Source: Patescibacteria group bacterium (lineage in GTDB: Bacteria > Patescibacteriota > Patescibacteriia > Patescibacteriales > UBA12075). Taken from it: DNA of 64,000 bases. Under the pieces are notes generated by a model that was not told the DNA's origin, ran no database searches, and saw only the letters and a list, made by a program, of their open reading frames with translations. The translations under genes were made by a program, and so were the position numbers. Every line of letters begins with the position of its first letter. The stretch's first letter is position 1. Positions 1-57,300 of this stretch are shown here, in pieces. The stretch spans positions 64,745-128,744 of the forward strand of contig JAHILH010000005.1 in assembly GCA_018897195.1 (NCBI GenBank), read 5' to 3'.

Positions 1-473
1 TTTTCACGAGCACCTAGCTTGGTCGAAGTTAAATCCATATCATCAAACAAACCCTTAAAATCATCTTCACTTGCTGTGCCTGCTGATGTTTTCTCAATGT
101 CATTGAGAACATTTTTAAGATCCTCCAAGATAAATGTGTTCTCACCTTTTATCTCACCCTTGCCCTTTTTAACCAGATAAGAAAAAAGCTCGGTTGGCTT
201 TAAGAAAAAACCGAGATGACCGATACAGCCAGTTTTAACATGTTCCAAGTAAGTCTTTCCATCCTTAGTATTTTCTTTTATTTCCGCAAATTTAAAATCC
301 TCACTCGCCAAAAGTTTTTCATCAACATAACGCTCCAACTTCTCCGATAGATACTTGTAAAAAATAAAACCAAGAATATAATTCTTGTATTCATCAGCAT
401 TCATCTTACCACGGAGCACATTTGCCACGCCCCACAGTTGCTTTTCAAGTAGTCTTTTTTGTTCTTCTGACAT
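1..473 (-). CDS. hsdM: Type I restriction-modification methyltransferase subunit HsdM, N-terminal part (gene continues past the left edge)
   Basis: Not in the ORF track because it is open at the window edge. Hand translation from the ATG at 473-471 gives MSEEQKRLLEKQLWGVANVLRGKMNADEYKNYILGFIFYKYLSEKLE..., which matches the HsdM N-terminal domain signature (LW..A..LRG....EYK.YILG.IFYKYLS). Confidence 0.75.
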   Translation of the reverse strand, partial: MSEEQKRLLEKQLWGVANVLRGKMNADEYKNYILGFIFYKYLSEKLERYVDEKLLASEDFKFAEIKENTKDGKTYLEHVKTGCIGHLGFFLKPTELFSYLVKKGKGEIKGENTFILEDLKNVLNDIEKTSAGTASEDDFKGLFDDMDLTSTKLGARE

Positions 474-693
474 AGTTTATTAGTTAAAGTTAGAGATAAT
501 AAAACATTAACGATATATTAAAATTTTACTCCAGTATTAGAGTAAAGTCAATTTCTTATTTAACACTTATTTAATACTTATTGAACAAATAAAGAGCTAA
601 TAAATAAAAAAATAACACGAAATTTTACATGGTTCGTGCTATTATTAGTGCGAATAGAATATCCGAAGATGCATTCTTTTTTCGAATTGGTTT

Positions 694-1101
694 TTATACA
701 GAGGTCTTGCTTAGCAATACGGCATTAGTATCATAAGCATTCCAATAGAGATGGGTTGTAATAAGTACTAGCAGATCAAATCCCAAGGCTTCAAGTGAAA
801 ATAAATTAGTAGGATTGGTATATAAATCATAAAAACTATAGGCCATTAAAATTGGCATCGCACATAAAAAAAGCAAATTAAGCCATCGTCTCTTTGGTAA
901 TTTTTGAGCGACCATATAAGCAAGCATGGTTGATAATATTATAAACGATGACAATGACTCAATCTGTGCATCAAGACCATGTTGCTCAACGAGAGATAAT
1001 ATTAACAGAGATAATGATACAAGAACACCGCACGCTAAACACGAGGCAATAAAATAATAAGTTGTCCAAAAGCTTAATTCAGCTATTTTTTGTAGTTTCA
1101 T
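694..1101 (-). CDS. Hypothetical multi-pass membrane protein, paralog of 1120..1572
   Basis: ORF track. Mostly hydrophobic segments. The N-terminus MKLQKIAELSFW resembles MKLKKLWELNIW in the neighbour. A 26-nt 5' flank is 25/26 identical between the two genes (1096-1121 vs 1567-1592). Confidence 0.5.
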   Translation of the reverse strand: MKLQKIAELSFWTTYYFIASCLACGVLVSLSLLILSLVEQHGLDAQIESLSSFIILSTMLAYMVAQKLPKRRWLNLLFLCAMPILMAYSFYDLYTNPTNLFSLEALGFDLLVLITTHLYWNAYDTNAVLLSKTSV

Positions 1102-1119
1102 AATTTTTGTTTTAGCTAT

Positions 1120-1572
1120 TTAAATTTTAAATAAAAAGTCATCGCCATTTTCTATATATTGATATAACACAAAACCAATACCCAATAATACGGCAACACT
1201 ACTTATTGTAAGAATATTAAAACCAAGGTCAAAATAATAAACATAAGTAATAAAGTTAAACAAGATTACTGCCAAGGATATTGATAATACAAAGGCTATA
1301 CCAATAATTTTTCTAAACATTGGGGCTACTCGCAAACTAAGATACATGGCCAACGCACCTGATATACCTGGACCGAATAACTCTTTAAAGAAAATTCTAT
1401 TAAAATTCATGCCTTCCGTAATGAATAGATTTTGAATAAACATGAGAGCTGACGTCAATAAACCAATAACAAAAATACTAACAATAAAAACTACCACAAA
1501 CACTGGCAAAATGGCAATAAAGCGAAAAATTATTTTCCAAATATTTAATTCCCACAGTTTTTTTAATTTCAT
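1120..1572 (-). CDS. Hypothetical multi-pass membrane protein, paralog of 694..1101
   Basis: ORF track. Hydrophobic throughout. Shares its N-terminus and 5' flank with the neighbouring gene. Confidence 0.5.
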   Translation of the reverse strand: MKLKKLWELNIWKIIFRFIAILPVFVVVFIVSIFVIGLLTSALMFIQNLFITEGMNFNRIFFKELFGPGISGALAMYLSLRVAPMFRKIIGIAFVLSISLAVILFNFITYVYYFDLGFNILTISSVAVLLGIGFVLYQYIENGDDFLFKI

Positions 1573-1615
1573 AATTTTTGTTTTAGTTATTTGAATTAAT
1601 TTTATTATTTAATTA

Positions 1616-2161
1616 TCAGCTTTTTTTAATTTCATGATTTCGATTTAATGCAAATTTATTTACAAGAATGTAAAAAAATACAATTATCAAAAGCAACAAA
1701 AATTCATTTACTATTATATTGCCCCAGTTTTTTTTATATTCATACTCCACTCGCCAATTTTTCTCCCAAGGTTTATGAAGATATATAATATCGATATTAT
1801 TTACTGTTTTTAACAATATAGCCCCATATGATATATTATCAAAGTCGCTACATTCCTTGCTAATCTTTTGCTCCTCTAATTTCTGCATCTCCTTTGCCAT
1901 GTTATAACTATTTTTTCTAGGACTTCCACTTTCTTCAAGAAATTTTTCCCTAAAGAATTCTAGCATATATGAATATTTATATAATTTCTTTCCATTGTCG
2001 CAGGTAATATTTTCAAAATTATCAACGCTCTTAGCCATTTGTGTATATTTTTTAAATATATAGACAGTTCCTAATAAAAAAACAATGGCTAGCAATGCAA
2101 ATATCGACTTATTGATTATTTTATTTTTTTTCTTAATTTCTGTATTATCAAATATATACAT
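1616..2161 (-). CDS. Hypothetical membrane-anchored protein (N- and C-terminal hydrophobic segments)
   Basis: ORF track. Candidate TM segments are SIFALLAIVFLLGTVYIF and LLLLIIVFFYILV. No recognisable catalytic motif. Confidence 0.4.
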   Translation of the reverse strand: MYIFDNTEIKKKNKIINKSIFALLAIVFLLGTVYIFKKYTQMAKSVDNFENITCDNGKKLYKYSYMLEFFREKFLEESGSPRKNSYNMAKEMQKLEEQKISKECSDFDNISYGAILLKTVNNIDIIYLHKPWEKNWRVEYEYKKNWGNIIVNEFLLLLIIVFFYILVNKFALNRNHEIKKS

Positions 2162-2184
2162 GATTTTAATTTTATATATTTTTA

Positions 2185-2784
2185 TTATTTAGATTTTCTC
2201 CATCCAGCTTCAACCGCCTCATCTTCACCACAAAACCAACTCTCGCCCCTCAATTCATCAATTTTAGTTTTGCTATAATAATTGTCACCTATCAAATGGT
2301 AAATTTTTTCACCAGTCTTTGAAATGTTGCCCTTAATATTGCACCATGGCTTAAACCAAAAAACTTGAGCAGAAACAATTACAACCAAAACAAAAATACC
2401 AGCAAAAATATATTTCATTTTATTATTATAAAAAAAAGACCGTAATAAATCCGTATTACGGTTAGCCTGGCTTAATATTGGCAAAGATTCTTTTTCTATC
2501 TTTTTAACTACTCCATCAATTCGATAAATCTTATTTTCATATTTCACAATCTCAGCACCTATGATCGTATTGATTTTATATCTGTACTGTCGAATGTGAT
2601 CCTCGTCATAATCTTTCGCCCTATCTAGCTCGTCACCTATCTCAGAAATATTTGCCGATCCGTGTTTACACAAAAAAATTAGAACGCGAAAAGCATTGCC
2701 AGTTAAACAAAGCTCTTTGTCATTCTCGTCAACTATAGTTTTTAACACTTCATTTAGCGCAAAGTGCTTGTGCTTGTAGATCAT
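2185..2784 (-). CDS. ToxR/CadC-like membrane-anchored transcriptional regulator (N-terminal OmpR/PhoB-type winged helix, one TM, short extracytoplasmic C-terminal domain)
   Basis: The N-terminal stretch F.L.......LTGNAFRVLIFLCKHGSANISEIGDEL...IRQYRYKINTIIG..I.....YRI resembles trans_reg_C winged helices. A TM segment follows (YIFAGIFVLVVIVSAQVFWF). The C-terminal motif is CNIKGNIS..GEKIYH......Y..T.......WFC.EDEA.EAGWRKSK. Confidence 0.5.
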   Translation of the reverse strand: MIYKHKHFALNEVLKTIVDENDKELCLTGNAFRVLIFLCKHGSANISEIGDELDRAKDYDEDHIRQYRYKINTIIGAEIVKYENKIYRIDGVVKKIEKESLPILSQANRNTDLLRSFFYNNKMKYIFAGIFVLVVIVSAQVFWFKPWCNIKGNISKTGEKIYHLIGDNYYSKTKIDELRGESWFCGEDEAVEAGWRKSK

Positions 2785-2821
2785 TTATTGTGCATTATGT
2801 CGAGATAATTTTTGATAAAAA

Positions 2822-2989
2822 AACGGACACCCGACCTGCAAAAAAATACAATTGGTATCCGTGAAGATCCCGCATGCGTTTTTGGTCGGAGTGTCCGTTC
2901 CTGCGCGCATACGAAGAAATAATGCCAAAATGGCACTAATATTAAATCTTCACGATTATGAAATTGTATTTTTTTGCATTTTAATTATA
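2822..2989 (-). promoter_or_regulatory. Structured 5' leader of the ToxR-like gene: candidate terminator/antiterminator (riboswitch-like or attenuator) element with its own -10
   Basis: Three inverted-repeat pairs were read directly. IR-2: 2837-2853 tgcaaaaaaatacaatt pairs with 2962-2978 (17/17). IR-3: 2860-2868 cgtgaagat pairs with 2946-2954 (9/9). IR-1: 2822-2836 aacggacacccgacc pairs with 2884-2899 (one bulge). On the minus strand IR-1 is followed by a U7 run (2817-2823). A minus-strand TATAAT lies at 2989-2984. Confidence 0.4.
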
Positions 2990-3096
2990 CCATGACTACA
3001 AAAATTTACAATACACTTTGAGAGTTATTCATCACAATAACAAGACCAAAAAAATATTCATACCAATATCATTAAAAAACCCAGCAAATATACTAG

Positions 3097-3125
3097 TTGA
3101 CTTTCTATAAAATATGTGCTATAAT
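3097..3125 (+). promoter_or_regulatory. Strong sigma70-type promoter facing the recoded gene module
   Basis: TTGACT (3097-3102), a 17-nt spacer, then TATAAT (3120-3125) preceded by TGc (extended -10). Confidence 0.55.
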
Positions 3126-3200
3126 ATATAATATAAAATGATAGAATTCGCATCATATAGACTCAATTAAAAACATTTAGCATTAAATCTTATTTATCAA

Positions 3201-3410
3201 ATGAACAAACAGACAATTTCAAAATTTTGAACAGAGCACTCCAAGAACAGTTACCGTTCTGATTCTTACTTGTCCATCAACGATTGATCAATAACAAATC
3301 AAATTAATATACACATCCGATGATCCCCTCCCCGCGAGATTATGGATGTTTTTTTATATCCAAAAAATATCTTACCAGCAAATCCAACGAGGATACTGCA
3401 AATTAAATAA
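3201..3410 (+). CDS. Candidate small ORF, open only if three in-frame TGA codons are sense (weak call)
   Basis: Hand translation gives 69 codons with no TAA/TAG and TGA at 3228, 3285 and 3321. The product has no recognisable motif, and the ORF overlaps a weak hairpin plus T-run at 3313-3356. Confidence 0.2.
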
Positions 3411-3486
3411 ATTATAATTAATGGTTGGAGAATTTAAATATTTCCGACCACTGTTTTGCCACAAGCATAACTTGCAATAAAAATGT

Positions 3487-4050
3487 ATGTCCATGAAATT
3501 TAAACCGAAGTTTTTAATTATTCCTTTTCAAGTTTGTGAAAATGAAAATTTAAGAGCATCAGACAAACTTGTATATTGAATAATTCACTACTACAGCAAG
3601 ATGGGGAAGAAAAAATGCATCGCGTCAAATGAAAGTATTAGAGAGTTAGTCTGATTTAAAAACGAAAGAAATGTACAAGATGCTATTGTTCGTCTGGAGT
3701 CAGAATGATGGGTTGAGCGTACATTTAGGACGATCAGTAAATCTAGAAGAACTGGAATAATATGTTACGATTTTCAACAAATTGAAAAAATGAAAAAAAA
3801 CTTGATCGTGCTGGAGTGATCAATTAACCATCAGATCAGTAATAGTGATAAGGAAACAACTATATCTAAAGATATAGTTAGCGCCAATAAATTGTCGCTA
3901 GGTAATACAATTAATAATTGACCATTAACTAATAGATATAATGGTCAAGCTCTACACTGTTCCGAAAATTGCACCGAATTAATGAATAGCCAAATATCAT
4001 CTAGCGCGTTATACGATCTCCATGATCAATATAATAATTACAGTTATTAA
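3487..4050 (+). CDS. Winged-helix DNA-binding protein (phage/plasmid replication- or regulator-like), open only with five in-frame TGA read as sense (best fit Gly)
   Basis: Hand translation gives 188 codons with no TAA/TAG in very AT-rich DNA. TGA codons start at 3577, 3652, 3706, 3817 and 3919. The sequence ...FLIIPFQVCENENLRASDKLVY*IIHYYSKMGKKKCIASNESIRELV*FKNERNVQDAIVRLESE*WVERTF... places two of them at classic wHTH glycine positions. Ends with TAA at 4048-4050. Confidence 0.6.
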
Positions 4051-4189
4051 TATAGCTGCAAAAAGCGATTAAACAATCACACAGTAATCATAATTTCATA
4101 AGATGGCTAAAAAAAATAAGAACAGTCAAAAAATATAACTAATTATTTTACTATTTAACGACAAAAAATCGTTAAATTCAATTAACATT

Positions 4190-4570
4190 ATGCAAACTAT
4201 TGCAGAAAAAATTTGAGTTTTAACTCGAAGACACCAAGATTGGTCGAGTTATTTAGTATTAACTGAGTTCGTCAAAGACAAACAAATGACGGCAAAGAAA
4301 ATTAAAAAACTCTTTAACCGATTTGTAGATACAGAAGATTTTGACAAATCAGAAAAGAAATCCATATTAAGACATTTGTTCAACTTATCAAATGCCGTAT
4401 CAAAGGAAGATGAACATAGTGATCAAGGACAAATCCAACATCATAATAAGGAAATAAATCTGAATAAGCAAAATAATGAATATGCGTTACCAGTGACCAA
4501 TTTAAGACCACACATATCTGGGCGATTTTACCGCAAAAAAAATTCAAAATTGGTCGCAGGTGAAAAATAA
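4190..4570 (+). CDS. Hypothetical protein with an N-terminal HTH-like start, containing one in-frame TGA (extends track ORF 4286..4570 upstream)
   Basis: The frame is continuous from the ATG at 4190: MQTIAEKI*VLTRRHQDWSSYLVLTEFVKDKQ-MTAKKIKK.... TGA lies at 4214-4216 in an IAEKI[G]V context. An upstream in-frame TAA sits at 4157. Confidence 0.45.
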
Positions 4571-4696
4571 ATAACATCTTCGACCAAAGTCACCTTAATT
4601 GAATATACCGAGCTTAAATTGGTAATTTGGTATTAAAAAATGCACCTTTAAAAGAGGATTGCAATTAATAAATTTTAATCGTATGATGTTGATGTC

Positions 4697-4716
4697 ATTG
4701 TGGCAATTACCACAAT
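4697..4716. promoter_or_regulatory. Inverted repeat upstream of xis (possible operator)
   Basis: attgtgg-caatta-ccacaat, with 7-bp perfect arms, ends 24 nt upstream of the xis ATG. Confidence 0.3.
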
Positions 4717-4739
4717 CAATGTTGTACTTTAACAATTAA

Positions 4740-4937
4740 ATGAACAATTCAAAACACAACAAACTAATATCACCTAAAGAATTAGCGGATATCCTTGGCT
4801 TATCGCTCGCATCAATCTACAGATTAACCTGAGACAGACGAATACCTTTCTATCAGATTGGTTGAGTTCTAAGATTTAAGCAAGAGGATGTTGATAGTTA
4901 TCTAAGTGATACTAGAGTTGAAATGATGAGTCTATAA
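4740..4937 (+). CDS. xis: Excisionase / HTH_17-type DNA-binding protein with two in-frame TGA codons
   Basis: Hand translation: MNNSKHNKLISPKELADILGLSLASIYRLT*DRRIPFYQIG*VLRFKQEDVDSYLSDTRVEMMSL. This fits the excisionase-family pattern (L...E.A..LG.S..TIYR......IP....IG...RF...D...(W/Y)L). TGA codons at 4830 and 4863. TAA at 4935-4937 lies 5 nt before the int ATG. Confidence 0.65.
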
Positions 4938-4942
4938 ATTAT

Positions 4943-6085
4943 ATGAGTGCATACAAACGAAAAAACAAATGGTGGGTAGCGTTCATGATAGATGGTCATA
5001 GAATCAGACAATGCAGTCCTGATAACACCAAGGCTGGTGCGATAGTCTTTGAATCACAGCTAAGACAAAAAATAGCCAATGGGTCGCTAACGAGAGCGAA
5101 CAGTAAAGCTAAGTCCATGAGATACAAAGACTTTGTTCCAATGTGGCTAAAAGATTATGTGGAGGTGAATAGTAAGCCATCGGATATTGTCGCAAAGAAA
5201 ATGATTCTAAGAGTTCATTTACTGCCCTACTTTGGTGAAATGAAAATTGATCAAATTACCAATCGTATCATTGAGCAGTTCAAAGCCATACAGCAAAGAA
5301 ATAAAAAATCCCCTAAAACAATCAATAATCATTTAGGGGTATTGAGAAAATCTTTGGCAACTGCCGACGATTGGGGTCTACAGGTTACCATCCCAAAAAT
5401 AAAACCACTAAAAGTAATGCTTGCCGAAGTTAGCTTTCTAACAGTTGAAGAATGTGAAAATGTTTTACAATCAGCTGATGACATCTGGCATGATATGATT
5501 CTGTTGGTAATGAAAACTGGATTGCGTTTTGGTGAATTGGTTGCCCTAAACTGGCAGGATATCGATTTTGCAAATAAGCAAATAACCGTCTGTCGATCAA
5601 TCGTCAAGAACATTCCTCAAAACAGCACCAAGAGCAACAAGATTCGTCATGTGCCTTTTGGAAATGAGGTTGAACAAATGTTAATACTTCGCAAAAGTGC
5701 ATCAATCAATGAATATGTGTTTTCTAATAAACACGGTGAGTTTATGAAATCAGCCACTTGCAGAACTAATTTAATTAGAATCTGTAAGCAAGTCGGTGTA
5801 ACTAAAATTGGCTGGCATTTATTGAGGCATACATTCGCATCGCACCTATCGGAAAATAACATCTCACCAATTATCATTCAAAAGCTTCTTGGGCACAGCG
5901 ATATCAAGACAACAATGAGATATGCTCACCTAGGAAATGAAGTAACCAGAGAGGCGGTGAAGACGCTTGAAAGACCTATTATTTTAGAAGGTTGCCACAA
6001 TTTTGCCACAAAGGTAGATAATGACACAAAAACTGATAAAATAATAGAAAGATTTACTGCTAATATAAAACAAGAACAGGAATAA
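4943..6085 (+). CDS. int: Tyrosine recombinase / phage-type integrase
   Basis: ORF track, 380 aa. N-terminal SAM-like domain. Catalytic motifs TGLRFGEL (Arg), HLLRHTFASHL (H-x-x-R) and TTMRYAHL (Tyr). No in-frame TGA. Adjacent to a tRNA. Confidence 0.9.
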   Translation: MSAYKRKNKWWVAFMIDGHRIRQCSPDNTKAGAIVFESQLRQKIANGSLTRANSKAKSMRYKDFVPMWLKDYVEVNSKPSDIVAKKMILRVHLLPYFGEMKIDQITNRIIEQFKAIQQRNKKSPKTINNHLGVLRKSLATADDWGLQVTIPKIKPLKVMLAEVSFLTVEECENVLQSADDIWHDMILLVMKTGLRFGELVALNWQDIDFANKQITVCRSIVKNIPQNSTKSNKIRHVPFGNEVEQMLILRKSASINEYVFSNKHGEFMKSATCRTNLIRICKQVGVTKIGWHLLRHTFASHLSENNISPIIIQKLLGHSDIKTTMRYAHLGNEVTREAVKTLERPIILEGCHNFATKVDNDTKTDKIIERFTANIKQEQE

Positions 6086-6101
6086 AACCCTGCTCTTGTA
6101 C

Positions 6102-6192
6102 TGGCGGAGAAGGAGGGATTCGAACCCTCGGTCCGCTTTCACGGACAACGCTTTTCGAGAGCGTCGCCTTCAACCACTCGAGCCACTTCTCC
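6102..6192 (-). tRNA. tRNA-Ser (anticodon CGA), long variable arm, encoded CCA
   Basis: The reverse complement reads GGAGAAG-TG-GCTC..GAGTGGTTGAAGGCG-ACGCT-CTCGAAA-AGCGT-TGTCCGTGAAAGCGGACC-GAGGG-TTCGAAT-CCCTC-CTTCTCC-GCCA. It shows a 7-bp acceptor stem, the anticodon loop CT-CGA-AA, the T-loop TTCGAAT, and a class II variable arm. Confidence 0.9.
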
Positions 6193-6945: not shown

Positions 6946-8379
6946 TTATTTTTTATCTTCTTTATTAATCATTAAGTGCCCCATTCCCATTAAGGCTATT
7001 AATACCCAGAACATTATTGCCATATCATTCTTAAAGTACGGAACATCCACAGCTCCGTGAATTACGATTGCCGTCATTGCTGACAATAATGTAATTATTA
7101 TATAGTTTTCTTTTGTACTGGAGCCGTAATTTTGAATTTTATGTTTTGAATTTTGAAGCACCTGGCGGACGCCAATATAATAAAACTTAACAATTATCCA
7201 AGTCATCAACAATGCGCCAAGTAAGCCTAACTCTGACCAGAAATTTAAGAAAATATTGTGCGGGTAAAGATAGACTTCAACTGGTCGCCAATATTTCTTT
7301 TTGTAATCGTCACTAAACAAAACTAATTTACGATGAAAGTCTGGGTCATGATCTTCGTTAAAAAATATTCCTTCTTGATGATACGGCTTCACCGCTGTTT
7401 GATAATTAGCCAGGCCCGCTCCCAAAATAAAACGTTGCGGACTTTCGGTTAACATCATCCAGGTCTCTCGCCATTGTTGCTTGCGCACTTCGCCAGAAAA
7501 ATCACTTAGCGTTCCTTTTTCAACTATCTTATTGTGCACATTAACATTTACAAAAAACATAATCAGCGCAAATATTAAAACTCCCATAGTTGCTAAGCGC
7601 ATTCGTTTGCCGATTAATAGACCAAACAAAATTGTCCCCGCCACAACACCCACTATCGCTCCCTCGGAATGCGCAAAGTAAATTGACAATAAAGATAAGA
7701 TTATTATTACTGATAAAAATATAATTTTTAAAATTTTTTCTTTATTCAAAATTCGAAATTCGAAATTCGAAATTGCTAAGCCATGGCCTGTCATTAATAA
7801 AACTAACGGCGCCAAATAAAGACCGAGCGCATTGGGATAGGCAAAGACGGAAACTACTCTTCTTGTTTCTACAGCTGACCAAAATGGATTGGCGATAAAA
7901 TCACCGGTTATTTTTTGGTAGATTGCAAAGACGGAAATCAAAAAAGCTGCAATCGTCAATGGCCAAATTATTTTCTCAAATACGGAAACCCAGCCTTCGC
8001 CAAGACTACGGCGTGGCGAAGCAAAAACATTAAACAATAAAATATAAAACAACAATGGTTCAAAAAAATACGCTTTCCAGATTCCAAAGGCTTCATTGCT
8101 AAAGCCCGCAACACCAACGGAGATAAAAGAAATAATTAACAGCAACACCATCTCAATATCAAACGGATAACGACTCAGTCCTGCACCTCCGCTGCGTCGT
8201 GTTTTAATATTTTCAATGACCTGTTTATAGCCGTTCAAAAACCAGATTGCGAAAGTCGCCAAAATCATCACCTCCAACATTGTAATGGGAATACCAACTA
8301 TTTTAAATCTTAGGGTGTAGCTAGGCAACGCAAAAAGAATAAACATTATTGCCCACTGTAAATATTTTACATTTCTCAT
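6946..8379 (-). CDS. O-antigen ligase/polymerase-like (Wzy_C family) polytopic membrane protein
   Basis: 477 aa with more than 10 hydrophobic segments. The motif YPHNIFLNFWSELGLLGALL resembles the HN..L....E.G..G signature of O-antigen ligase-like proteins. Confidence 0.65.
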   Translation of the reverse strand: MRNVKYLQWAIMFILFALPSYTLRFKIVGIPITMLEVMILATFAIWFLNGYKQVIENIKTRRSGGAGLSRYPFDIEMVLLLIISFISVGVAGFSNEAFGIWKAYFFEPLLFYILLFNVFASPRRSLGEGWVSVFEKIIWPLTIAAFLISVFAIYQKITGDFIANPFWSAVETRRVVSVFAYPNALGLYLAPLVLLMTGHGLAISNFEFRILNKEKILKIIFLSVIIILSLLSIYFAHSEGAIVGVVAGTILFGLLIGKRMRLATMGVLIFALIMFFVNVNVHNKIVEKGTLSDFSGEVRKQQWRETWMMLTESPQRFILGAGLANYQTAVKPYHQEGIFFNEDHDPDFHRKLVLFSDDYKKKYWRPVEVYLYPHNIFLNFWSELGLLGALLMTWIIVKFYYIGVRQVLQNSKHKIQNYGSSTKENYIIITLLSAMTAIVIHGAVDVPYFKNDMAIMFWVLIALMGMGHLMINKEDKK

Positions 8380-17562: not shown

Positions 17563-17682
17563 GTTGGCTCCATAGTCCCGAATGGGCTGTGGAGCCGTCG
17601 TGCAATTATTTAAATTTCCACAATGAAGTATATTATTAATTGCACTAAGGCTCCACAGGGACGCGGCCACTATGGAGCCAAC
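17563..17682. repeat. Long imperfect inverted repeat / MITE-like element downstream of truB
   Basis: gttggctccatagt (17563-17576) is the perfect reverse complement of actatggagccaac (17669-17682). The arms extend imperfectly to about 48 nt (shared ctgtggagcc and gtgcaatta). Each arm also folds on itself (ggctcca.ag...ctgtggagcc). Confidence 0.5.
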
Positions 17683-17789
17683 TATTTATTTCCTCTTTTT
17701 CCCAAAATATGTTAAAATAAGATTAATGTTAATAACTAATCTGTAATAAATATTTCGATATTTATTTACAATAGAGAGGGGGTGAATTC

Positions 17790-18194
17790 ATGAAGAAAAA
17801 ATTATCAAATAAGGTTGCAACAATAGTTATCCTTTTCGTAACTATGTTATCCGCATCTGCCATTTTTGCATCATCAGCATTAGCGCTTGACCCTTGGGCT
17901 AGCGGTGGCGCTGGCGAACAAGCCGTAGCAGATATCGGTCTAGGCACAAAAAGTCCAGTGGACGTGGCTACCAACATAATCAACATTATGCTTGGTTTCC
18001 TTGGTATGATTGCTGTAGTAATCATCTTGCTAGGTGGATTCAAATGGATGACTGCCGCAGGTAACGAAGATAAAATCAGTGAAGCGAAAAAACTTCTAGC
18101 CGCTGGTTTAATCGGCTTAATCATTATCTTAATGTCTTACGGTTTGGCTAAGTTCGTTATTGAACAAATGATGAATGCGACTACTTCCGCATAA
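17790..18194 (+). CDS. VirB2/TrbC-like small pilin, paralog 1 of 7
   Basis: Strong SD (gggggtga). Signal peptide, then a variable region, then the conserved core LGFLGMIAVVIILLGGFKWMTAAGNEDKISEAKKLLAAGLIGLIIILMSYGLA (TM, charged loop, TM). Confidence 0.7.
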   Translation: MKKKLSNKVATIVILFVTMLSASAIFASSALALDPWASGGAGEQAVADIGLGTKSPVDVATNIINIMLGFLGMIAVVIILLGGFKWMTAAGNEDKISEAKKLLAAGLIGLIIILMSYGLAKFVIEQMMNATTSA

Positions 18195-18220
18195 ATTAGT
18201 TTCAAAAATTAGCTAATATT

Positions 18221-18283
18221 ATGAATCCGCCCTGGCGGGTTCATAACCGTGAACACAAGTTCGATTGTATTCACGGTTATGAA
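18221..18283 (+). terminator. Two overlapping strong hairpins after pilin gene 1 (terminator/attenuator candidate)
   Basis: Hairpin A spans 18221-18244 (atgaatccgcc..ggcgggttcat, ~10 bp). Hairpin B pairs 18240-18253 ttcataaccgtgaa with 18270-18283 ttcacggttatgaa (14/14). The two share ttcat (18240-18244). Confidence 0.45.
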
Positions 18284-18333
18284 TAAATTTAATTAATAAT
18301 TTATAAAATCATTTTTGATTTTAAAAAAACTCT

Positions 18334-18723
18334 ATGTTTAAAAAAATAAGTGCATTTTTCATGATCGCTTTCTCCCTTTTTATAATGAAAGCTTCCCCAT
18401 CATTAGCCGAGGTTAATATCTGGACAGGTCCGGATGGTGTTGACACTCAAGCAAGCATTGAAGGCATTGGCTTTGAAGCTAATGATCCACGAACAATGGT
18501 GGCCAACGGTATCAAGATTTTTCTTGGCTTCCTGGGCATGTTGGCCGTTATTTTAATTCTTTATGCTGGTTTTCTATGGATGACTGCTGCTGGCAATGAT
18601 GACAACATCAAAAAAGCTAAACAAATTTTATCCGCAGCTGTTGTTGGTTTAGTTATTATCTTAATGTCTTACGGTCTTGCTAGTTTTGTCCTAACTCAAA
18701 TCAAAACCGCAACTGGTTCATAA
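18334..18723 (+). CDS. VirB2/TrbC-like small pilin, paralog 2
   Basis: Signal peptide plus the core FLGFLGMLAVILILYAGFLWMTAAGNDDNIKKAKQILSAAVVGLVIILMSYGLA. Confidence 0.7.
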   Translation: MFKKISAFFMIAFSLFIMKASPSLAEVNIWTGPDGVDTQASIEGIGFEANDPRTMVANGIKIFLGFLGMLAVILILYAGFLWMTAAGNDDNIKKAKQILSAAVVGLVIILMSYGLASFVLTQIKTATGS

Positions 18724-18744
18724 ACTAATTCGAAAAATACACAG

Positions 18745-19164
18745 ATGACTAAAAATACAATCATCAAAAAAATATTTATTTTCACCTTCTTATTAATGGT
18801 TGCTTTGGCAAATGTAAGCTTAGCAGCGACTGATAATACAGGCGATGATACTTTGAAAAATTTAAACAAAACTGCCAACAAAGCTTATACAGGGTCAGAA
18901 ACTGGAAGCATTACAGGCTCCGTTGGTCAATCATTACCAACTCTAGTTGGAAAAATCATCGGTACCGTTCTTTCTTTTCTGGGCGTCATCTTCATGGTTC
19001 TCATGATTTATGGTGGCTTCTTGTGGATGCTGGATCGCGGTGAAGGCTCGCATGCCAAAAAAGCTAAAGACTTAATCGAGGCTGCTATCATTGGACTAGT
19101 TATCGTCATGTCGGCTTACGCTATCACCGCCTGGATAGGACAAAAACTAACTACAGGTAATTAA
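18745..19164 (+). CDS. VirB2/TrbC-like small pilin, paralog 3
   Basis: Signal peptide plus the core LSFLGVIFMVLMIYGGFLWMLDRGEGSHAKKAKDLIEAAIIGLVIVMSAYAI. Confidence 0.7.
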   Translation: MTKNTIIKKIFIFTFLLMVALANVSLAATDNTGDDTLKNLNKTANKAYTGSETGSITGSVGQSLPTLVGKIIGTVLSFLGVIFMVLMIYGGFLWMLDRGEGSHAKKAKDLIEAAIIGLVIVMSAYAITAWIGQKLTTGN

Positions 19165-19182
19165 TTATTAAATTAATATAAA

Positions 19183-19602
19183 ATGTTAAAAAAAGCCTTA
19201 ACAATATTAAATACATTGCTCATTGTGATTATTTTTTCAGCAATGTTAATGCCCAGTATTGTTAGTGCCTTTAACGTTAACAACTTTGAAGAAAGTAGTA
19301 GTCTTAAAAAAACTGGCGACGAGACTGGTCACACCAGAATGAAGGTAACTGGCTCAAACTTAGAATATACAATCCCCTATATAATAAATTCTGCACTCTC
19401 ACTTGTCGGCGTTATTTTTCTAATTTTAATGCTTTACAGTGGCTTTCTCTGGATGACCGCCAAGGATGATAACAAGGCCATCGATAAAGCTAAAGAAAAT
19501 ATAAAAAGCGCTTTAATAGGTTTAATAATCGTTCTAGGGGCTTATGCAATCACCCAATTAGTACTTGAATTATTTAAATCAACAGTAAACACAACAGCAT
19601 GA
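19183..19602 (+). CDS. VirB2/TrbC-like small pilin, paralog 4
   Basis: Signal peptide plus the core LSLVGVIFLILMLYSGFLWMTAKDDNKAIDKAKENIKSALIGLIIVLGAYAI. Its stop overlaps the next start (ATGA at 19599-19602). Confidence 0.7.
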   Translation: MLKKALTILNTLLIVIIFSAMLMPSIVSAFNVNNFEESSSLKKTGDETGHTRMKVTGSNLEYTIPYIINSALSLVGVIFLILMLYSGFLWMTAKDDNKAIDKAKENIKSALIGLIIVLGAYAITQLVLELFKSTVNTTA

Positions 19603-20003
19603 TAAATATTAAAAAATACATTACAATAGTTATTCTGGCCATTATATTATTAGCTAACTCTTCTCATGTTTTAGCTCAAGGTTTAAGTAGTGCTTTTAGT
19701 GAAAGCAGCAAGCTAAAAGATATGGCTGGCGCTGGAGGCATGGGCTATAACACTGAAACCACTTCGGATATCTTAATCGGCACTATTATCAATGCCTTTT
19801 TATCTGTTCTTGGCATCATCTTCCTTGTCCTAATGCTCTATGGAGGCTATCTCTGGATGACTGACCGCGGTAACGATGACTCAGTTAAAAAAGCCAAGAA
19901 TGTTATTCAGGCAGCCATTATTGGCCTAGCCATCGTTCTTATTTCCTTTTCCATCTCCTACTTTGTAATTACTAAACTGGGAGACGCGACCTTAACTAAA
20001 TAA
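19599..20003 (+). CDS. VirB2/TrbC-like small pilin, paralog 5
   Basis: Signal peptide plus the core LSVLGIIFLVLMLYGGYLWMTDRGNDDSVKKAKNVIQAAIIGLAIVLISFSI. Confidence 0.7.
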   Translation: MINIKKYITIVILAIILLANSSHVLAQGLSSAFSESSKLKDMAGAGGMGYNTETTSDILIGTIINAFLSVLGIIFLVLMLYGGYLWMTDRGNDDSVKKAKNVIQAAIIGLAIVLISFSISYFVITKLGDATLTK

Positions 20004-20008
20004 ATCTT

Positions 20009-20383
20009 ATGAAAAAAATAAAAATCACACTGGTATCACTTTTCATGTCACTATCATTCGTCAATATTGCCTTTGCAATAACTGCTCCACTCGGCAACCT
20101 AGGAAAACTCAGAGAAAAAACTAGTTTTGCAGAGGGCGAAGGAACTGATACTGCTATGGCCGAAAATATCGGCATTGGCATCAATCTTTTTTTAAGTATC
20201 CTGGGCATCATCTTTGTTATTCTAATAATCTACGCCGGCTACAAATGGATGATGGCACAAGGAGACGACGGAGAAATTAAAAAAGCTAAAAGCACTATTA
20301 ATCGAGCTGTAATCGGCCTAATTATCATCATTGGCTCATTTGCCATTTGGAATTTAATCTCTAACAAACTACTTCCAGTTTAA
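20009..20383 (+). CDS. VirB2/TrbC-like small pilin, paralog 6
   Basis: Signal peptide plus the core LSILGIIFVILIIYAGYKWMMAQGDDGEIKKAKSTINRAVIGLIIIIGSFAI. Confidence 0.7.
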   Translation: MKKIKITLVSLFMSLSFVNIAFAITAPLGNLGKLREKTSFAEGEGTDTAMAENIGIGINLFLSILGIIFVILIIYAGYKWMMAQGDDGEIKKAKSTINRAVIGLIIIIGSFAIWNLISNKLLPV

Positions 20384-20390
20384 CAAAAAT

Positions 20391-20780
20391 ATGTATTCAC
20401 GTTTTGAAAAAATAATTACCCCCGTATTCATCTTCATCTTTGCGCAAGCAGCAAGTGCTACGGAAATAATAAATAAAACTGCTTCCACTGAAATTCGTAA
20501 ACAGACAGATGCGCTTAGTTACGGTGCTGGTTTTGATAAAAATTTACAAGTCGGCTCAGTCTTGGGCACTGTGATTAAATCTTTTTTTAGCATCATGGGT
20601 ATTGTTTTCTTAATACTTGTCCTTCATGCCGGCTACAAATGGATGATGGCTAATGGCAAAAAAGACGACGTTGAAGAAGCCAAGAATAGCATTACAAGAG
20701 CTGTTATCGGCTTAGCCGTTATGGTTGCCGCCTATGCGCTTACCGCCTTTATTTTCAACCAAATAGACCAAATACGTTAA
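20391..20780 (+). CDS. VirB2/TrbC-like small pilin, paralog 7
   Basis: Signal peptide plus the core FSIMGIVFLILVLHAGYKWMMANGKKDDVEEAKNSITRAVIGLAVMVAAYAL. Confidence 0.7.
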   Translation: MYSRFEKIITPVFIFIFAQAASATEIINKTASTEIRKQTDALSYGAGFDKNLQVGSVLGTVIKSFFSIMGIVFLILVLHAGYKWMMANGKKDDVEEAKNSITRAVIGLAVMVAAYALTAFIFNQIDQIR

Positions 20781-20799: not shown

Positions 20800-20830
20800 A
20801 AAAAAGACGATTATAATAATCGTCTTTTTT
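20800..20830. terminator. Bidirectional intrinsic terminator between the pilin array and the convergent transporter gene
   Basis: aaaaaagacgattataataatcgtctttttt: a perfect hairpin (aagacgatta/taatcgtctt) flanked by A- and T-runs. Confidence 0.75.
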
Positions 20831-51326: not shown

Positions 51327-54300
51327 TTACTTCATCTTCAACCAGCCAAAGGTATCTTCAAAAGTCTTGATAATGATTTGCAGTACGGATTCCTCCTTAG
51401 ATGGAGCAAGGACAGTGTAGTCTTTGGAATAAGAGACGTTGCCAGCCTCATCAATACTTCGTGCCTTGAAGGTATAAACAGTGGATGGCTTGAAGTCGGT
51501 GATGACAAGAACATGCTTACTAGTTAGACTACCACCATCTTTAGCAATGGTAAATTTATCATTACCAACACTAACCTCTTCAGTGGAGACTTTCTTCCCT
51601 GTACTACTGGCGGCATTATCAGTTGAATCTAGAGTTGGTAAATTTTTTGCGCCCCCTTCGGCATAAATAATCTCACTCGTTGATGGCTCATTAGTTTTCC
51701 AAGTAACCACCGCCTGGACGCTGTTTTGATCACCCTTGCTAATCAAGGCCATGTCGGTTTGCACGTATTCAATAATTGGAGCCTGGGTATCGATTAAGGT
51801 TGAGAATTCAAAACCCTTACTTTCGGTAGCTTGATCGTGTTTATCTTTACCCTTGATTTTAAAGGTATACCTAGTACCAGGAAACAAGTTAACTAATTTG
51901 ATCTCATGGTCCTTGGTAAAATCACCTGACCTCATTGAATCAGTCACCTTGGAGGTAATATTGGTATATTCAATTTCCGAAGTAGACTCATTAGTTGTTT
52001 TCCAAGTGACATTTGCTGATTTATCGGTGATTTTATTAATACTATAAGTAAGGACATCAAATGAAGTTAGTGTCGTGAAAGTGTAGTCATCAGAAGAGAT
52101 AACATCACCCTTTCGACTCGCCCCCTTGGCTTTAAAGTGATAAGTTTGACCAGACTTCAAATCACTCAATCTCAGGCTATGATTAACAACGGAGTTATTT
52201 GAATCTGCTTTAGCAGTTTGACCATAAGCCGGCGTGGAGCCATAATCTAATTCCGAAGTAGTTTCCGTATTAGAGAGCCAAGAAATTTCGATACTCGTAT
52301 TAGTTATATTAGACATTGAAACTTCAGAAACAAACGGGATACCGGTAGTCTCAAATGATTTTTGATCAGAAGCACCAATATTACCAAGAGCATCGACACT
52401 TTGAGCCACAAAAACATATTTGCGTCCCGGCGCTAAGTTGGAAATATTAACAGTGTGATCCGTAACCAGGGCGGAATAATTACCAACTTGCTCCGCGCTA
52501 TCACGGCCCATTGATTCGATGTAATAGGAAATAATACTATTAGACTTGCGATTTGTCTTCCAGGCGATAGTCACTGACTTCGCGGTAACATTGCTAATCT
52601 CAGGTCCGGCGCCAGAAATCATTGGCGGCTCACCAGTTTTTTGAATTGCTGCCCGAATATCTTCAGGATTAACCTTACCGGATGACAACAACTCATTAAT
52701 CATTTCCTGAATCTTGGTTAAAGTATTTTCTGCATCCTTCTTTACTTCTGCCGCAACATCTTTCTTAGCCTCTTCGCCGGCCGCCAACGTAGTCAAGGCA
52801 AAGTCTGGTGATGCAGACATGTTACCCCAAGAGTCAGCAGAAACCGCCGAGAAATGATAAGTAGTATTTGGAGAAAGTTTTTTCAAATAAATTACATGAT
52901 TCTTAATTCTTTTTAGATAACTCTGATAATCAGATTCGGCCGAATCATAATCAGACGACAAGCCATAACCGACCATTGAGCTCGATTCTTCATTTGTGCT
53001 CCAAACTATCTTAGCATAGACATCTCCTTGCTCAACTATTTTAACATTAGAAATAACCGGTGCCGTCTTATCGGTTTTATCAATAATTAAAGCGCCACCA
53101 CCGCTCTTACTGTTAACAAGATTTAGTTGACTTTGCAACTCATTAATTTTGTTTATTTTTTCTTGTAATTCAGCATCTGTATGCATTCCAGCGGTAGCAT
53201 TAGACAATTGCTCGCTCAAACTATTAATCTCAGCAATCCTTGCCTGCATTTCCACCTCAGTATAAGCTTTGTCCTGCAAACTTAATAATTGCAACTCAAG
53301 ACTATCAATTAAATTTTGTTTTTCTGCCAAATCATCACCCGTGTATCTAATAGCTAATGTCTTAAAACTTACTTCATTTGATGTAAAATTCTTATTACCA
53401 TCCTCTGAATCAATTGTTTTAGTTTTAATATAATAAGTAGTGCTAGCAATTAAATTAGTTAAATAATAACTATGGGTTCTTGTCGGTGTAAGAATCGTTA
53501 GTCCAGTACAAGTGTCCATATTGATACCGACCAAGGTTGAGTAACAAATTTTCGAAGTGGCCGTAGTGTTAGTATTTGGAATACTAACAATTGCCTCCGT
53601 ATCTGATTGAATCACTGTCGGATCGCCAGGATTAACCAACTCTTCATGAGTTACTTGCGTGGCTAGCGTGGTAAAAGAATATTCTGAACTGGTAGCCAGA
53701 TTGCCTCCACCATCTTGTGATTTAGCATAGTAATAATAAGTTGTACTCGCAGTTAGTCCACTTAATTTCAAAAAGTGTAAAGTGCTTAAGCGACTTGAGT
53801 TTTCAGAGACATACGGACCACCAGTTGTTTCGCCATAATGAACAACTGAGTCAGAAGTTTCATTTGTTTCCCAAAATATGGTAGCCGTAGTATCGGTAAT
53901 TATAGAAACTTGCGGACTTGTTTCAATCACTGGCACAGTCTGGTCTGTTGTTGAAAATGTATAGACTGGTGATTCTTGCGAGTAGCCATCTTTAACAGAT
54001 CGCACTTTATAATAATACACTGTACCGTCACTCAAGCTAGAAAGTGTAATAATGTGCGTTGTTGTTGCTGTAGCATCGGTTGAGAAATTACTACCAATAA
54101 AATTAGCATTGGTTGTATATTCAACTTGCGAAGTAGCCGCTTGATCCGTGTCCCAAGAAATAATAGTTGTCGTTGTGGCTGCACTGGCAAAAACATTAGT
54201 AATTTTTAAGTTACTGGTCTTGAGAGAATACTCCGCGCTGGTGGTTGCATTGCTATTCGTATCAAATGAAGTAACTCGGAAGTAATAATCAGTAAAGGCA

Positions 54301-57300
54301 TTTAAACCGGAGATATTAACACTATGTGTTCTGGTCATAATATCGTCACTAGTGCTAGCAAGATAATTTGCCGTGCTCGTACCCCATTCCACTATCGAAT
54401 TAGCTGTTTCGTCGGTCTGCCAATTAATTGTCGCACCATTACTACTGACATTGATTGCAATCACTCCGGAAATGACCGGTGCGATTAGATCGCCGGAAGT
54501 GAAATAATAAAGTGGCGATTGAGTAGTATAATTATCGGCGGTAGTGGAAATAACGCGATAATAATATTTTGTAGACTGTACCAATCCACTAATTTCTATT
54601 TCATGATTCTTAGTTGAGTCACTAGGATACATTGGCTCAAATGCACTAGTCAATGTCGGAAAAGCTGGATCGGAATTATATTCCACCTGTGAACTTGTAT
54701 TCTCATTTGTACTCCAAGTAATTTTCACAGCCGTCTCGCTAGTTGTGGAGGCAATTACATCAGTCAAGCTGATTCCCTCGGTTGTAAATTCACCCGTTGT
54801 CGTCGCTGATACATTGCCACTGGCATCAACCGAGAATAATTGATAATAATAGGTAGTATCCGATTTCAAATTTGCAAGATCAACCAGATGTGTAGTCGTT
54901 AATATATCATTACTAATACCAATGGCGTAATCATTTGTACTGGTGCCATAACTAAATATCGATCTTGAAACTTCATCGGCTTGCCAAGTAACCACCGCAC
55001 TTGTTCGTTTAACTTGACTATTGATATTAGTATTGCCTGGCGGAGTGGCATCACTGGTTGTCATATCGGAATAGTATTGACCAAGGTTGTTATCCTTGCC
55101 TGTGCCCGATTTAACATAAAAATAATATCTAGTACCTTGCTTTAAACTATTTAAAGTAACTGAATGGCTAGTTTCGGAATCATCCTGTCCCACCTCCACT
55201 GGTGCCGGACTAATCATATTAGGATCAAGAGAATAGCCAACAAACGAATTCGCTGGTATATCCGTCGCCCAGACAATCGTCATGCTATTATTGGTTTTGC
55301 CAGTGACAATAATAGTACTGGAAGCAATTTTCGGACCATCGAGTGTGGTAAAATGATAGGTCTCATCAAGACTAGAGCCCTCAGTGCCATCAGCACTTGT
55401 TGATTTAACCCGGAAATAATATTCAGTATTAGAGTCCAGACCGTCAATAACAACTCGATGTTTGCCCAAGCCATTATTATCATTCAACATGGTGGCAATA
55501 CCTTTGAAAGGCGCATTGGCAAAACCAGCAAGCACTGGCACTGTGGTTGTAGCAATATATTCCACACTAGAATTAGACAAGACACTAGTATTCCAAACAA
55601 TCTCAGCCTGAGTCGTTAAAATTTCTATAATCTCCACGCTAGTGATTACTGGCGGAACACCAACTGAAGTACCGCCGCCGCCCTCGCCAAAATCCTGGAT
55701 TCCGTTTGGCACCCCGTGCATGACGATATTGGTATCGCTCTTACTGGTGTAGTATGAATAATTACCAACACCATCTTCGAGATAAACACGATAATAATAA
55801 TGATAATCTTTTACAACATTACTATCGGTGAAAAAATTAACATGCCGATCCGTACTGATTCCAAGCGGCGCAAAATCACTATTTAGTGGCGTAAAATTTA
55901 CTCCTGGGTCAGTCGCATACTCGGCTCGTTCCACGTGATAAGCTTTGAATTCGCCAACATTAACTCCCCCCACTGGCATCACTGACTCTTTCCAGGCTAG
56001 ATACAGATGAACATCACTTGGCGTAATGTAAGTATTGGTTACATCTTGAACCATAATAGAGGTTACCCTCGGCGGAATTATTGCGTCATAAAAATTCTGA
56101 TCAAAATTATTCAAACTATCTTTATATTGAATATAAACCGCTGTTGTGCTGGCTATAACCTTAATAGTCGTACTCGCTCCACTTTTAATACCATTATCCA
56201 AAATCCATTGACCGGAATCAATATTAAGACCATCCGCTAGCAATAAACCATTTACAGTTGAAGAGGATAAAGAATAACGATAATACGTATCAGAAATATC
56301 CGTCGCCTTAAACGTAATTTTCACTTCATCAGCAGCCATGGCTCCCGTTTGACGCGCGTCAACTTTGAGAACATTATATGAATCAGAATCAGTATCCACG
56401 GTTGGCGCCTTAGCATCAACTGGGAAAATTAGTGAACTGGAAGTGCCGATACTATTAGCTGCCTCTTTATCACTGGCCACAATTTGAATTTTAAAATCAA
56501 TATCATTTTCATGATTATTAAATCCATCACCGGGATTCCAGATTAAGTTAAACGTGTGTGGCGTTGAGGTACTCACCTGATCAAGATAGTGCGTGCTAAC
56601 AGAGTCACTAAGTAATCCCTGAACTGCCGAGGTGGCAATATCCGTCCAAACACCGGAATCATAATATTTCAAACTTACTTCAACCCTATTACGCATCGCT
56701 CCACCCGCATACGAGCCTTGGTCCGTATCGACATCAACAACGCTGGCATTTATAACCACAGAGCCTGCCGGCGCCAAAATATCTCCCTGTGGAGTCGTGG
56801 TTGTTGCGTTAGCAGTAAGCTGTTCAGCTGTAACACTAGACACCGTCGGTGCAGCATTAATAACATATATCATATTAACCGCTGAAATTGATGGTGCGCT
56901 AACACCGTCGGAAATTAAAGTAATCTTATACTGAAACCATTGATCATTGTCACCAGTTTGAAAATTAACTGGCATAATATCTAATCCATCATAATTAATA
57001 AAATAGGAGTCACTGGTTCCGTCCGGACCTTCCCAGCTTGTCCAAGTCCCAGGCACAATTCCGGAATTTGGAGCAGTTCGAATTTGAAATTTAATATCCG
57101 TCCCCGCCGGCTTACTGCCCTGTGCCCAAGTAATCTTACTTAACATATTCGTCGCATCAGAAGAGTTATATGGTGATGAAATTAAAGAGGCAGCTGTGGG
57201 GAAATTAATAAAGCCAATCGTCACATCATTTAAAATAGGTGTCGCCGTTTCGTCTGTCGATGAAAAAGCCGCTTGATATTGAATGTAGCGATCGCCACTA

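Follow-up and report, generated by a model that had tools for sequence, protein, structure and literature searches.

Seven consecutive genes for small VirB2-like pilins were identified on the + strand of a 64,000-nt stretch of contig JAHILH010000005.1 (positions 64,745-128,744, forward strand), referred to below as the window. The locus very probably belongs with the VirB2-like pilin arrays already published for Patescibacteria. It is, on balance, probably a chromosomal operon of that kind in which gene 1 encodes the major pilin and genes 3-7 encode minor pilins of a fixed heteromeric set. The analysis established the family membership, the conservation of the array and of its gene order, covariation in an RNA element that follows gene 1, and an asymmetry that sets gene 1 apart in Shine-Dalgarno (SD) strength and evolutionary rate. 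The kind of array has been published before; what is new is the ordered set around a privileged first gene, together with the RNA element. The question addressed is the role of the several pilins in patescibacterial arrays. According to Wang et al. (2023, Cell; PMC10633639), a pilin series in the type IV secretion system (T4SS) cluster is essential in Southlakia epibionticum, the one species in which T4SS and arrays have been tested genetically and found essential for epibiotic life.

Gene organisation and family membership

The open reading frames (ORFs) of the window were listed, and the listing reproduced the seven tandem ORFs of 124-139 aa at 17790-20780 that had been reported in a preliminary description made from the sequence alone. 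The intergenic gaps from gene 1 to gene 7 were 139, 21, 18, -4, 5 and 7 nt, close to the spacing given there (4-22 nt, one 4-nt overlap and a gap of 139 nt). All copies are complete, lie on a single strand and are packed tightly as one operon. Alignment of the seven paralogues with MAFFT recovered the consensus and the shared plan described earlier, in which a signal peptide and a divergent segment are followed by a conserved two-helix hairpin around a charged loop. Residues G72, G83, W86, M87, A99, K100, G109 and L110 are invariant and give the hairpin pattern G...G..WM......AK........GL. Identity between paralogues is 43% in the hairpin vs 10.7% in the preceding mature segment, and the other proteins are 21-44% identical to gene 1.

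The leaders were read by eye; all seven have a basic n-region, a hydrophobic core and an AxA-type (small-x-small) site, and in gene 1 the site so read predicts cleavage after A32. The AlphaFold2 model of gene 1 (mean predicted local distance difference test score, pLDDT, of 80.7) has helices at residues 3-31, 56-87 and 93-132. Residues 60-120 score above 90 pLDDT, as do both of the helices 56-87 and 93-132.

PF18895 (T4SS_pilin) of Pfam matched all seven proteins. Genes 1, 2, 4, 6 and 7 scored 31.0-35.6 bits against a gathering score of 26.6 bits, with gene 5 exactly at the cut-off and gene 3 (24.7 bits) just under it. The same family matched 98/98 homologues, and close homologues are annotated as 'pilin' by NCBI. 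The sole recurrent second Pfam family among the seven proteins and the 98 homologues was PF04956 (TrbC/VirB2), at sub-threshold scores; it matched 20/98 homologues at E ≤ 1e-3 (best 1.6e-5). No holin or immunity-protein family was found by Pfam in the seven proteins or the 98 homologues, and no pilin N-methylation Pfam domain was matched by the seven. With PF18895 in every copy and no holin or immunity family, the VirB2/TrbC-like pilin assignment of the preliminary description stood up to profile searches, and the PF18895 assignment is sound. The mycoplasma profile NF045849 (Mbov_0395, a pilin-like conjugal transfer protein of integrative and conjugative elements, ICEs) also matched all seven (E 2e-10 to 5e-5) over its 80-residue hairpin and likewise comes from a monoderm host. 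At its cut-off of 40 bits only gene 4 passed, barely (40.1 bits; the other six 22.9-38.8 bits), and the array differs further in having no ICE context.

The array-family profile was compared using hhalign with seven annotated VirB2/TrbC proteins from plasmids of mating-pair formation type T (MPF_T). A probability of 51% (E 1.5e-4) was obtained over 58 columns in register, in which the mature N-terminus with its 'G..DP' motif and both helices were aligned, with the 'WM' at the end of helix 1. Homology to classical VirB2 is probable on this comparison. Like the Agrobacterium T-pilus subunit and RP4 TrbC, the array proteins have a signal peptide that is cleaved, a pair of hydrophobic helices with a short charged loop between them, and the aligned motif G..DP...v.NI..fl.G..G..AV...G..WM. 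They differ in a loop ~7 residues longer, a mature N-terminus 25-40 residues longer and a match under the Pfam threshold. The locus differs too, with no adjacent virB1, virB3 or virB4, a monoderm host and seven paralogues vs one gene.

The description of such pilins as a type known from the candidate phyla radiation (CPR) was correct and understated, since whole arrays have been published (PMC12102498, PMC10633639, PMC12857230). PF04956 and PF18895 were used by Quinonero-Coronel et al. (2025, Microb Genom; PMC12102498) to search 3,035 genomes of Patescibacteria. In 383 assemblies they report 441 VirB2 arrays, each with 2-11 pilin genes; identity averages 25% and reaches 54% at most. The present array resembles the published ones in its tandem PF18895/PF04956 genes in a CPR genome, its size of seven, a conserved fold at low identity (21-44% to gene 1) and the lack of a relaxase. 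It differs in lying between truB and an EamA gene, outside and not beside a T4SS cluster, and in its lineage, ABY1/Falkowbacteria, where the paper stresses Microgenomatia and Saccharimonadia. Paralogue order, a privileged first gene and an RNA element are not mentioned in the available text of the published accounts.

Conserved order and the distinct first gene

One genome per species was scanned for relatives. At least 582 were found, and 79 loci were kept. A hidden Markov model of the seven paralogues located tandem same-strand arrays in nearly all related loci, of 5-14 genes as a rule, with six genes commonest (32/80) and seven next (13/80). Four or more window genes had reciprocal best hits in 46 loci, and 39 of these were strictly collinear with the window, against a chance expectation of ~1 in 24 or rarer. 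Reciprocal best hits were obtained for gene 1 in 78 loci, gene 3 in 54 (across which its order is conserved), gene 4 in 24, gene 5 in 50, gene 6 in 39 and gene 7 in 28. Gene 2 had just 6, its best matches elsewhere being rank-1 genes, and to judge from these matches it is a recent duplicate of gene 1. Because the order is conserved across loci, the array is an old fixed set and no rapidly turning-over repertoire; by the same comparison of sequences the paralogues appear ancient and predate speciation.

Rates were compared with the nearest relative, locus L093. Identity to L093 is 98% for gene 1 and 92% for gene 2, vs 67%, 66%, 75%, 69% and 68% for genes 3 to 7. The nonsynonymous distance (dN) was 0.013 for gene 1, 0.15-0.22 for genes 3-7 and 0.01-0.09 for the flanking housekeeping genes, every one of which evolves more slowly than genes 3-7. 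In genes 1 and 2 the N-terminal segment is 100% identical to that of L093, vs 53-60% in genes 3-7, where dN was 0.27-0.39 in the N-terminal segments and 0.05-0.18 in the hairpins. The hypervariable N-terminal halves of the preliminary description therefore hold between paralogues and, for genes 3-7, between species; they do not hold for genes 1 and 2. Synonymous distances (dS) were saturated at ~1-3, leaving dN and identity as the only interpretable measures. No region gave dN/dS > 1 in this comparison, in which positive selection is not assessable at such saturation.

Divergence of this kind could also be read as a variation repertoire, the seven genes being alternative versions of one pilin with exposed N-terminal segments diversified for different hosts or for evasion. 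Antigenic or host-range variation has been suggested for Patescibacteria by analogy with Bartonella and Anaplasma (PMC12102498), and both the 10.7% identity between paralogues and the excess of N-terminal over hairpin dN in genes 3-7 between close relatives fit it. The virB2 families of Anaplasma phagocytophilum and Bartonella, read as antigenic or host-adaptive variation, are similarly tandem, divergent VirB2 genes in host-dependent organisms. In the window, however, the paralogues are old, ordered and unequal in their expression signals. A repeat search of the window revealed neither repeats shared by the copies at the DNA level nor conserved tracts of recombination among them. The complete, tightly packed copies include no silent cassettes, and no invertible promoter is present. 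Lineage-specific amplification or turnover of copies, the mark of antigenic variation, was not seen among the related loci, where one-to-one orthologues stand in order in 39/46. The N-terminal segments of genes 1 and 2 have not changed at all relative to L093, and no region exceeds a dN/dS of 1, though dS is saturated. We regard a variation repertoire as unlikely. The preliminary description had offered antigenic or host-range diversification and a major/minor pilin set as alternatives; the ancient, ordered paralogues and the lack of DNA repeats disfavour the first, and the signals around gene 1 favour the second.

The first of these signals lies upstream. TGnTAnAAT occurs upstream of the gene-1 orthologue in 27/73 loci, vs a background of 0.063 per 250 nt, and is followed by a GTTAATA box in 11 loci. 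The 105 nt before the gene-1 start codon are identical to L093 at 104/105 positions, with neighbouring synonymous sites near saturation. The copy at 17710-17718 (Table 1) presumably acts as a promoter. No Rfam family was found for the gene 1 leader at either gathering or E-value thresholds. The SD site of gene 1 is the strongest of the 41 window ORFs tested, and genes 2-7 are without one. Across loci, a strong SD precedes 76% of gene-1 orthologues vs 7% of other array genes (p = 3e-28). SD sites are scarce in the genome as a whole, with a recognisable SD (≤ -6 kcal/mol) in 4/34 longer window ORFs, so the very strong SD of gene 1 stands out.

Downstream, a median of 92 nt separates the gene-1 orthologue from the next array gene, vs 9 nt for other intra-array gaps (p = 1e-17), and this gap folds with z < -2 in 55/61 loci. 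In the window z is -6.7, a strong fold that bears out the structured 139-nt gap noted earlier. Compensatory changes were found at 23/28 pairs in 14 loci and at 21/21 pairs in 29 loci (29 species). Of the cells, 89.8% were paired, vs ~45% with slid partners; the covariation score was 0.625 vs 0.15-0.19 when slid, and 0/500 shuffles reached the observed values. Frequent G-U pairs argue for an RNA structure on the sense strand. Covariance model R1 was run over 1.26 Mb and located the element in ~36 loci. Without exception, the + strand matches with E < 0.01 in the 1.26 Mb directly followed a gene-1-type pilin gene. Rfam held no family for the post-gene-1 spacer at gathering or E-value thresholds, and on the covariation the spacer is a candidate new cis-acting RNA element. 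A canonical intrinsic terminator was also considered at this position and was dropped, as a simple scan yielded nothing convincing and few of the hairpins had a U-rich tail.

Table 1. Coordinates of the array genes and associated elements, numbered from the first nucleotide of the window
Feature	Position	Strand	Remarks
Extended -10 promoter element TGTTAAAAT	17710-17718	+	71 nt upstream of gene-1 start codon; putative
Gene 1 promoter and 5' leader	17688-17789	+	Near-identity to L093
TTAATGTTAATAAC box	17723-17736	+	Within gene 1 leader
Palindrome/hairpin	~17743-17769	+	Within gene 1 leader
Shine-Dalgarno site GAGAGGGGGTGA	17773-17784	+	Gene 1; duplex -12.4 kcal/mol
Gene 1	17790-18194	+	134 aa; proposed major VirB2-like pilin; PF18895 E 9.7e-9, TrbC 4.5e-4
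Multi-hairpin RNA element	18197-18286	+	~90 nt, immediately 3' of gene 1; covariance model R1 51 bits
HP0	~18195-18217	+	Short hairpin, conserved TCGA loop region
HP1	~18220-18245	+	GC-rich hairpin
HP2	~18239/18246-18284	+	Long hairpin, begins CCAYTG
Gene 2	18334-18723	+	129 aa; PF18895 E 2.7e-7; 44% identity to gene 1
Gene 3	18745-19164	+	139 aa; proposed minor pilin; PF18895 24.7 bits; no SD
Gene 4	19183-19602	+	139 aa; proposed minor pilin; PF18895 E 2.1e-8; NF045849 40.1 bits
Gene 5	19599-20003	+	134 aa; proposed minor pilin; 4-nt overlap with gene 4; PF18895 26.6 bits
Gene 6	20009-20383	+	124 aa; proposed minor pilin; PF18895 E 2.1e-7
Gene 7	20391-20780	+	129 aa; proposed minor pilin; PF18895 E 1.4e-7
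Inverted repeat, 15 nt, perfect	20800-20830		AAAAAAGACGATTAT / ATAATCGTCTTTTTT, 100% complementary; A-run on one side, T-run on the other

The inverted repeat that separates gene 7 from the convergent EamA gene is likely, from its form, to terminate transcription from both sides. A further nested hairpin of ~120 nt lies at 17563-17683 (+), between truB and the pilin promoter, and for the 243-nt region enclosing it z is -7.6. The window has no second copy of this hairpin, and L093 has a different ~60-nt stretch in its place. The ends of two Logan contigs coincide exactly with the 5' edge of the hairpin, which may be either an insertion specific to the strain or the terminator of truB. Anti-SD pairing seen when the upstream region was folded is probably 5' of the site at which, to judge from the -10 element, transcription would start.

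Proposed major/minor pilus and secretion machinery

We infer expression ratios and, from the family and the literature, leader processing, topology, assembly by a T4SS and pilus formation as follows. Each product would be inserted by Sec and its leader removed by signal peptidase I. The mature protein would be a two-helix hairpin whose K/E-rich (KKAK-type) loop faces the cytoplasm and whose divergent N-terminal segment is exposed on the outside. The pilin would then be drawn into a filament or channel extension for host-cell contact by a T4SS of the VirB4 type with its genes in another part of the genome. Gene 1, with the conserved extended -10 promoter and the strongest SD of the window, and its recent duplicate gene 2 would supply the abundant major subunit, and the RNA element would set the ratio by attenuating read-through or by stabilising the gene-1 message. 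Genes 3-7 would provide five low-abundance minor subunits, conserved in order and with fast-evolving exposed segments. Four signals around gene 1, independent of one another, speak for the division into major and minor pilins. The fuller proposal is held tentatively, as somewhat short of probable: a heteromeric pilus of controlled stoichiometry, with gene 1 as major subunit, about five ordered minor subunits that would specialise the filament, for instance for priming, for a role at the tip or for contact with the host, and a ratio set by the RNA element.

The layout, a major subunit first and then an ordered minor set, resembles the operons of type II secretion, type IV pili and Com systems (GspG-K, ComGC-GG). 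Those proteins are unrelated, with a class III prepilin signal, a prepilin peptidase and a single N-terminal helix, whereas the array proteins have leaders of the Sec/signal peptidase I type, AxA sites and a two-helix hairpin.

Several results weigh against a T4SS pilus built from this set. The curated PF04956 threshold of 27.9 bits was never reached, the best score being 20.8 bits for gene 1 (E 4.5e-4). A sequence-profile search of the PDB returned 0 hits. Foldseek comparison of the AlphaFold2 model with the PDB gave nothing significant (best match ATP synthase subunit c, E 0.9; no pilin in the top 50), a result that neither supports nor opposes the assignment, as a two-helix hairpin is too simple for a fold search to be informative. 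Only 9/61 post-gene-1 hairpins have a U-rich tail, so the RNA element is not a canonical intrinsic terminator. A T4SS pilus has so far been seen in no patescibacterium, and a review treats the pilus as possible (PMC12857230). T4SS machinery, moreover, is absent from the window and from within 10 kb of all 79 related arrays, as far as phmmer queries with proteobacterial VirB proteins can tell, which may miss a divergent CPR VirB4.

The window and the flanks of the 79 loci were screened with a Walker-A motif filter and then by phmmer with VirB3/4/6/8/11 of the Ti plasmid, and Pfam-labelled contexts were inspected as well. Only housekeeping ATPases and one PilT/VirB11-like match (in L016) were obtained. 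Within the window, ORF reading, Pfam and phmmer revealed no T4SS ATPase, coupling protein or channel gene, and phmmer and Pfam revealed no relaxase, coupling protein or VirB4. The absence of T4SS genes within ~15 kb, as reported in the preliminary description, thus extends to all 64 kb. The flank screens are weak negative evidence, backed by the Pfam-labelled contexts. With no T4SS near the window array or its 79 relatives, the link to a T4SS rests on homology and on other lineages. Four Falkowbacteria genomes of class ABY1 are VirB4-positive in Table S1 of PMC12102498, and the same four carry equally unlinked arrays (loci L013, L023, L041 and L066), so a genome with an unlinked array need not lack the machine.

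The same lack of linkage could mean that the genes encode small membrane proteins independent of any T4SS, with a VirB2-like fold and a role as an envelope or S-layer component, or as partners or substrates of flanking glycosyltransferase-like proteins. Polytopic membrane proteins resembling glycosyltransferases of the C type (GT-C) lie ≤ 3 kb from the array in 45/80 loci and glycosyltransferases of family 2 (GT2) in 21/80, and the structure search was non-diagnostic. Set against this are the homologous arrays of Saccharibacteria, which form part of the T4SS cluster and share its essentiality, the pilin genes found near virB4 in 1135/1948 assemblies (PMC12102498), and the relatives with unlinked arrays that still encode VirB4. 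Among Saccharibacteria, S. epibionticum ML1 has six pilins (SEML1_0006-0019), and TM7x also has an array. A role apart from secretion is accordingly judged improbable, slightly more so than a variation repertoire.

The GT-C-like neighbours are ~460-530 aa long, with no Pfam match or a weak one (PMT_2, DUF7649), as in L019:4111-5676 (-), L091:8248-9837 (+) and L060:4469-5842 (-). The commonest is divergently transcribed ~92 nt upstream of the array. The window has no GT-C-like gene beside the array, the sole candidate being a Wzy_C (O-antigen ligase-like) protein at 6946-8379. From their position, the GT-C-like and GT2 neighbours hint at glycosylation of pilins or of the envelope. The N-terminal segments of the pilins are rich in Ser/Thr.

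Genomic setting and significance

GyrA of the window is 75-78% identical to proteins of Ca. Falkowbacteria, and by this similarity the host is a Falkowbacteria-like patescibacterium of class ABY1. Three contigs with the same gene 1 sequence (L001-L003) match the window at 100% identity. Upstream of the array lie the housekeeping genes for FtsH, GreA, ClpP, a DHH phosphoesterase, RbfA, IF2 and TruB; an EamA transporter, a glycosidase of glycoside hydrolase family 1 (GH1) and a two-component system lie downstream. The order ClpP-DHH-RbfA-IF2-TruB-array-EamA-GH1 is common to the window and L093, and its upstream part is also present in L091, a contig of 904 kb. The GC content of the array is similar to that of its surroundings. 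To judge from gene order and composition, the array is a vertically inherited, chromosomal locus, and a mobile-element origin was rejected on synteny and GC content.

Derivation from an integrated conjugative element or a plasmid-borne mating apparatus is very improbable: although NF045849 matches all seven proteins (gene 4 at 40.1 bits, cut-off 40) and an integrase adjoins a tRNA-Ser gene at 4943-6192, the array keeps the GC content of its surroundings and the same chromosomal site in a housekeeping neighbourhood conserved across a family of genomes, 12 kb with FtsH, GreA, ClpP and IF2 separate it from the integrase, the window has no relaxase, coupling protein or VirB4, and relaxases are rare in Patescibacteria (PMC12102498).

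The integrase (4943-6085) is tyrosine-recombinase-like, was identified by eye and adjoins tRNA-Ser(CGA) at 6102-6192. It ends a low-GC stretch, window 1-6192 (30-31% vs ~38-40%), with small membrane and unknown ORFs, which is probably an integrated element. At the other end of the window, 51327-60803 (-) encodes a giant predicted surface protein of 3158 aa with a single N-terminal hydrophobic segment. Judged by eye, it contains ~15 tandem 'S.D.G.TW' (BNR/Asp-box-like) repeats and a long fibronectin-III-like series, and from these it is a candidate adhesin of the epibiont.

Patescibacterial T4SS genes are often near the replication origin according to published work. Arrays were found ~5 kb downstream of dnaA and dnaN in 8-11/80 loci (L038, L056, L064 and others). 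The window array is not at the origin, because the window has no GC-skew turning point. In ~15 related genomes one additional PF18895-like pilin gene stands alone, 5-8 kb upstream of the main array, for example at L021:2865-3269, L027:1588-1980, L043:4182-4577 and L059:4602-5033; the window has no such copy.

If the major/minor interpretation is true, it would describe the first pilus of the T4SS type to have a set of minor pilins in the manner of type II secretion and type IV pili, and in this lineage the pilus set would be encoded apart from the machine that assembles it. The RNA element, the SD asymmetry and the orthologue groups provide handles for transcriptomics, proteomics and genetics in tractable Saccharibacteria. 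Across ~80 species, ordered and ancient arrays around one privileged first gene give a testable model of major and minor subunits.

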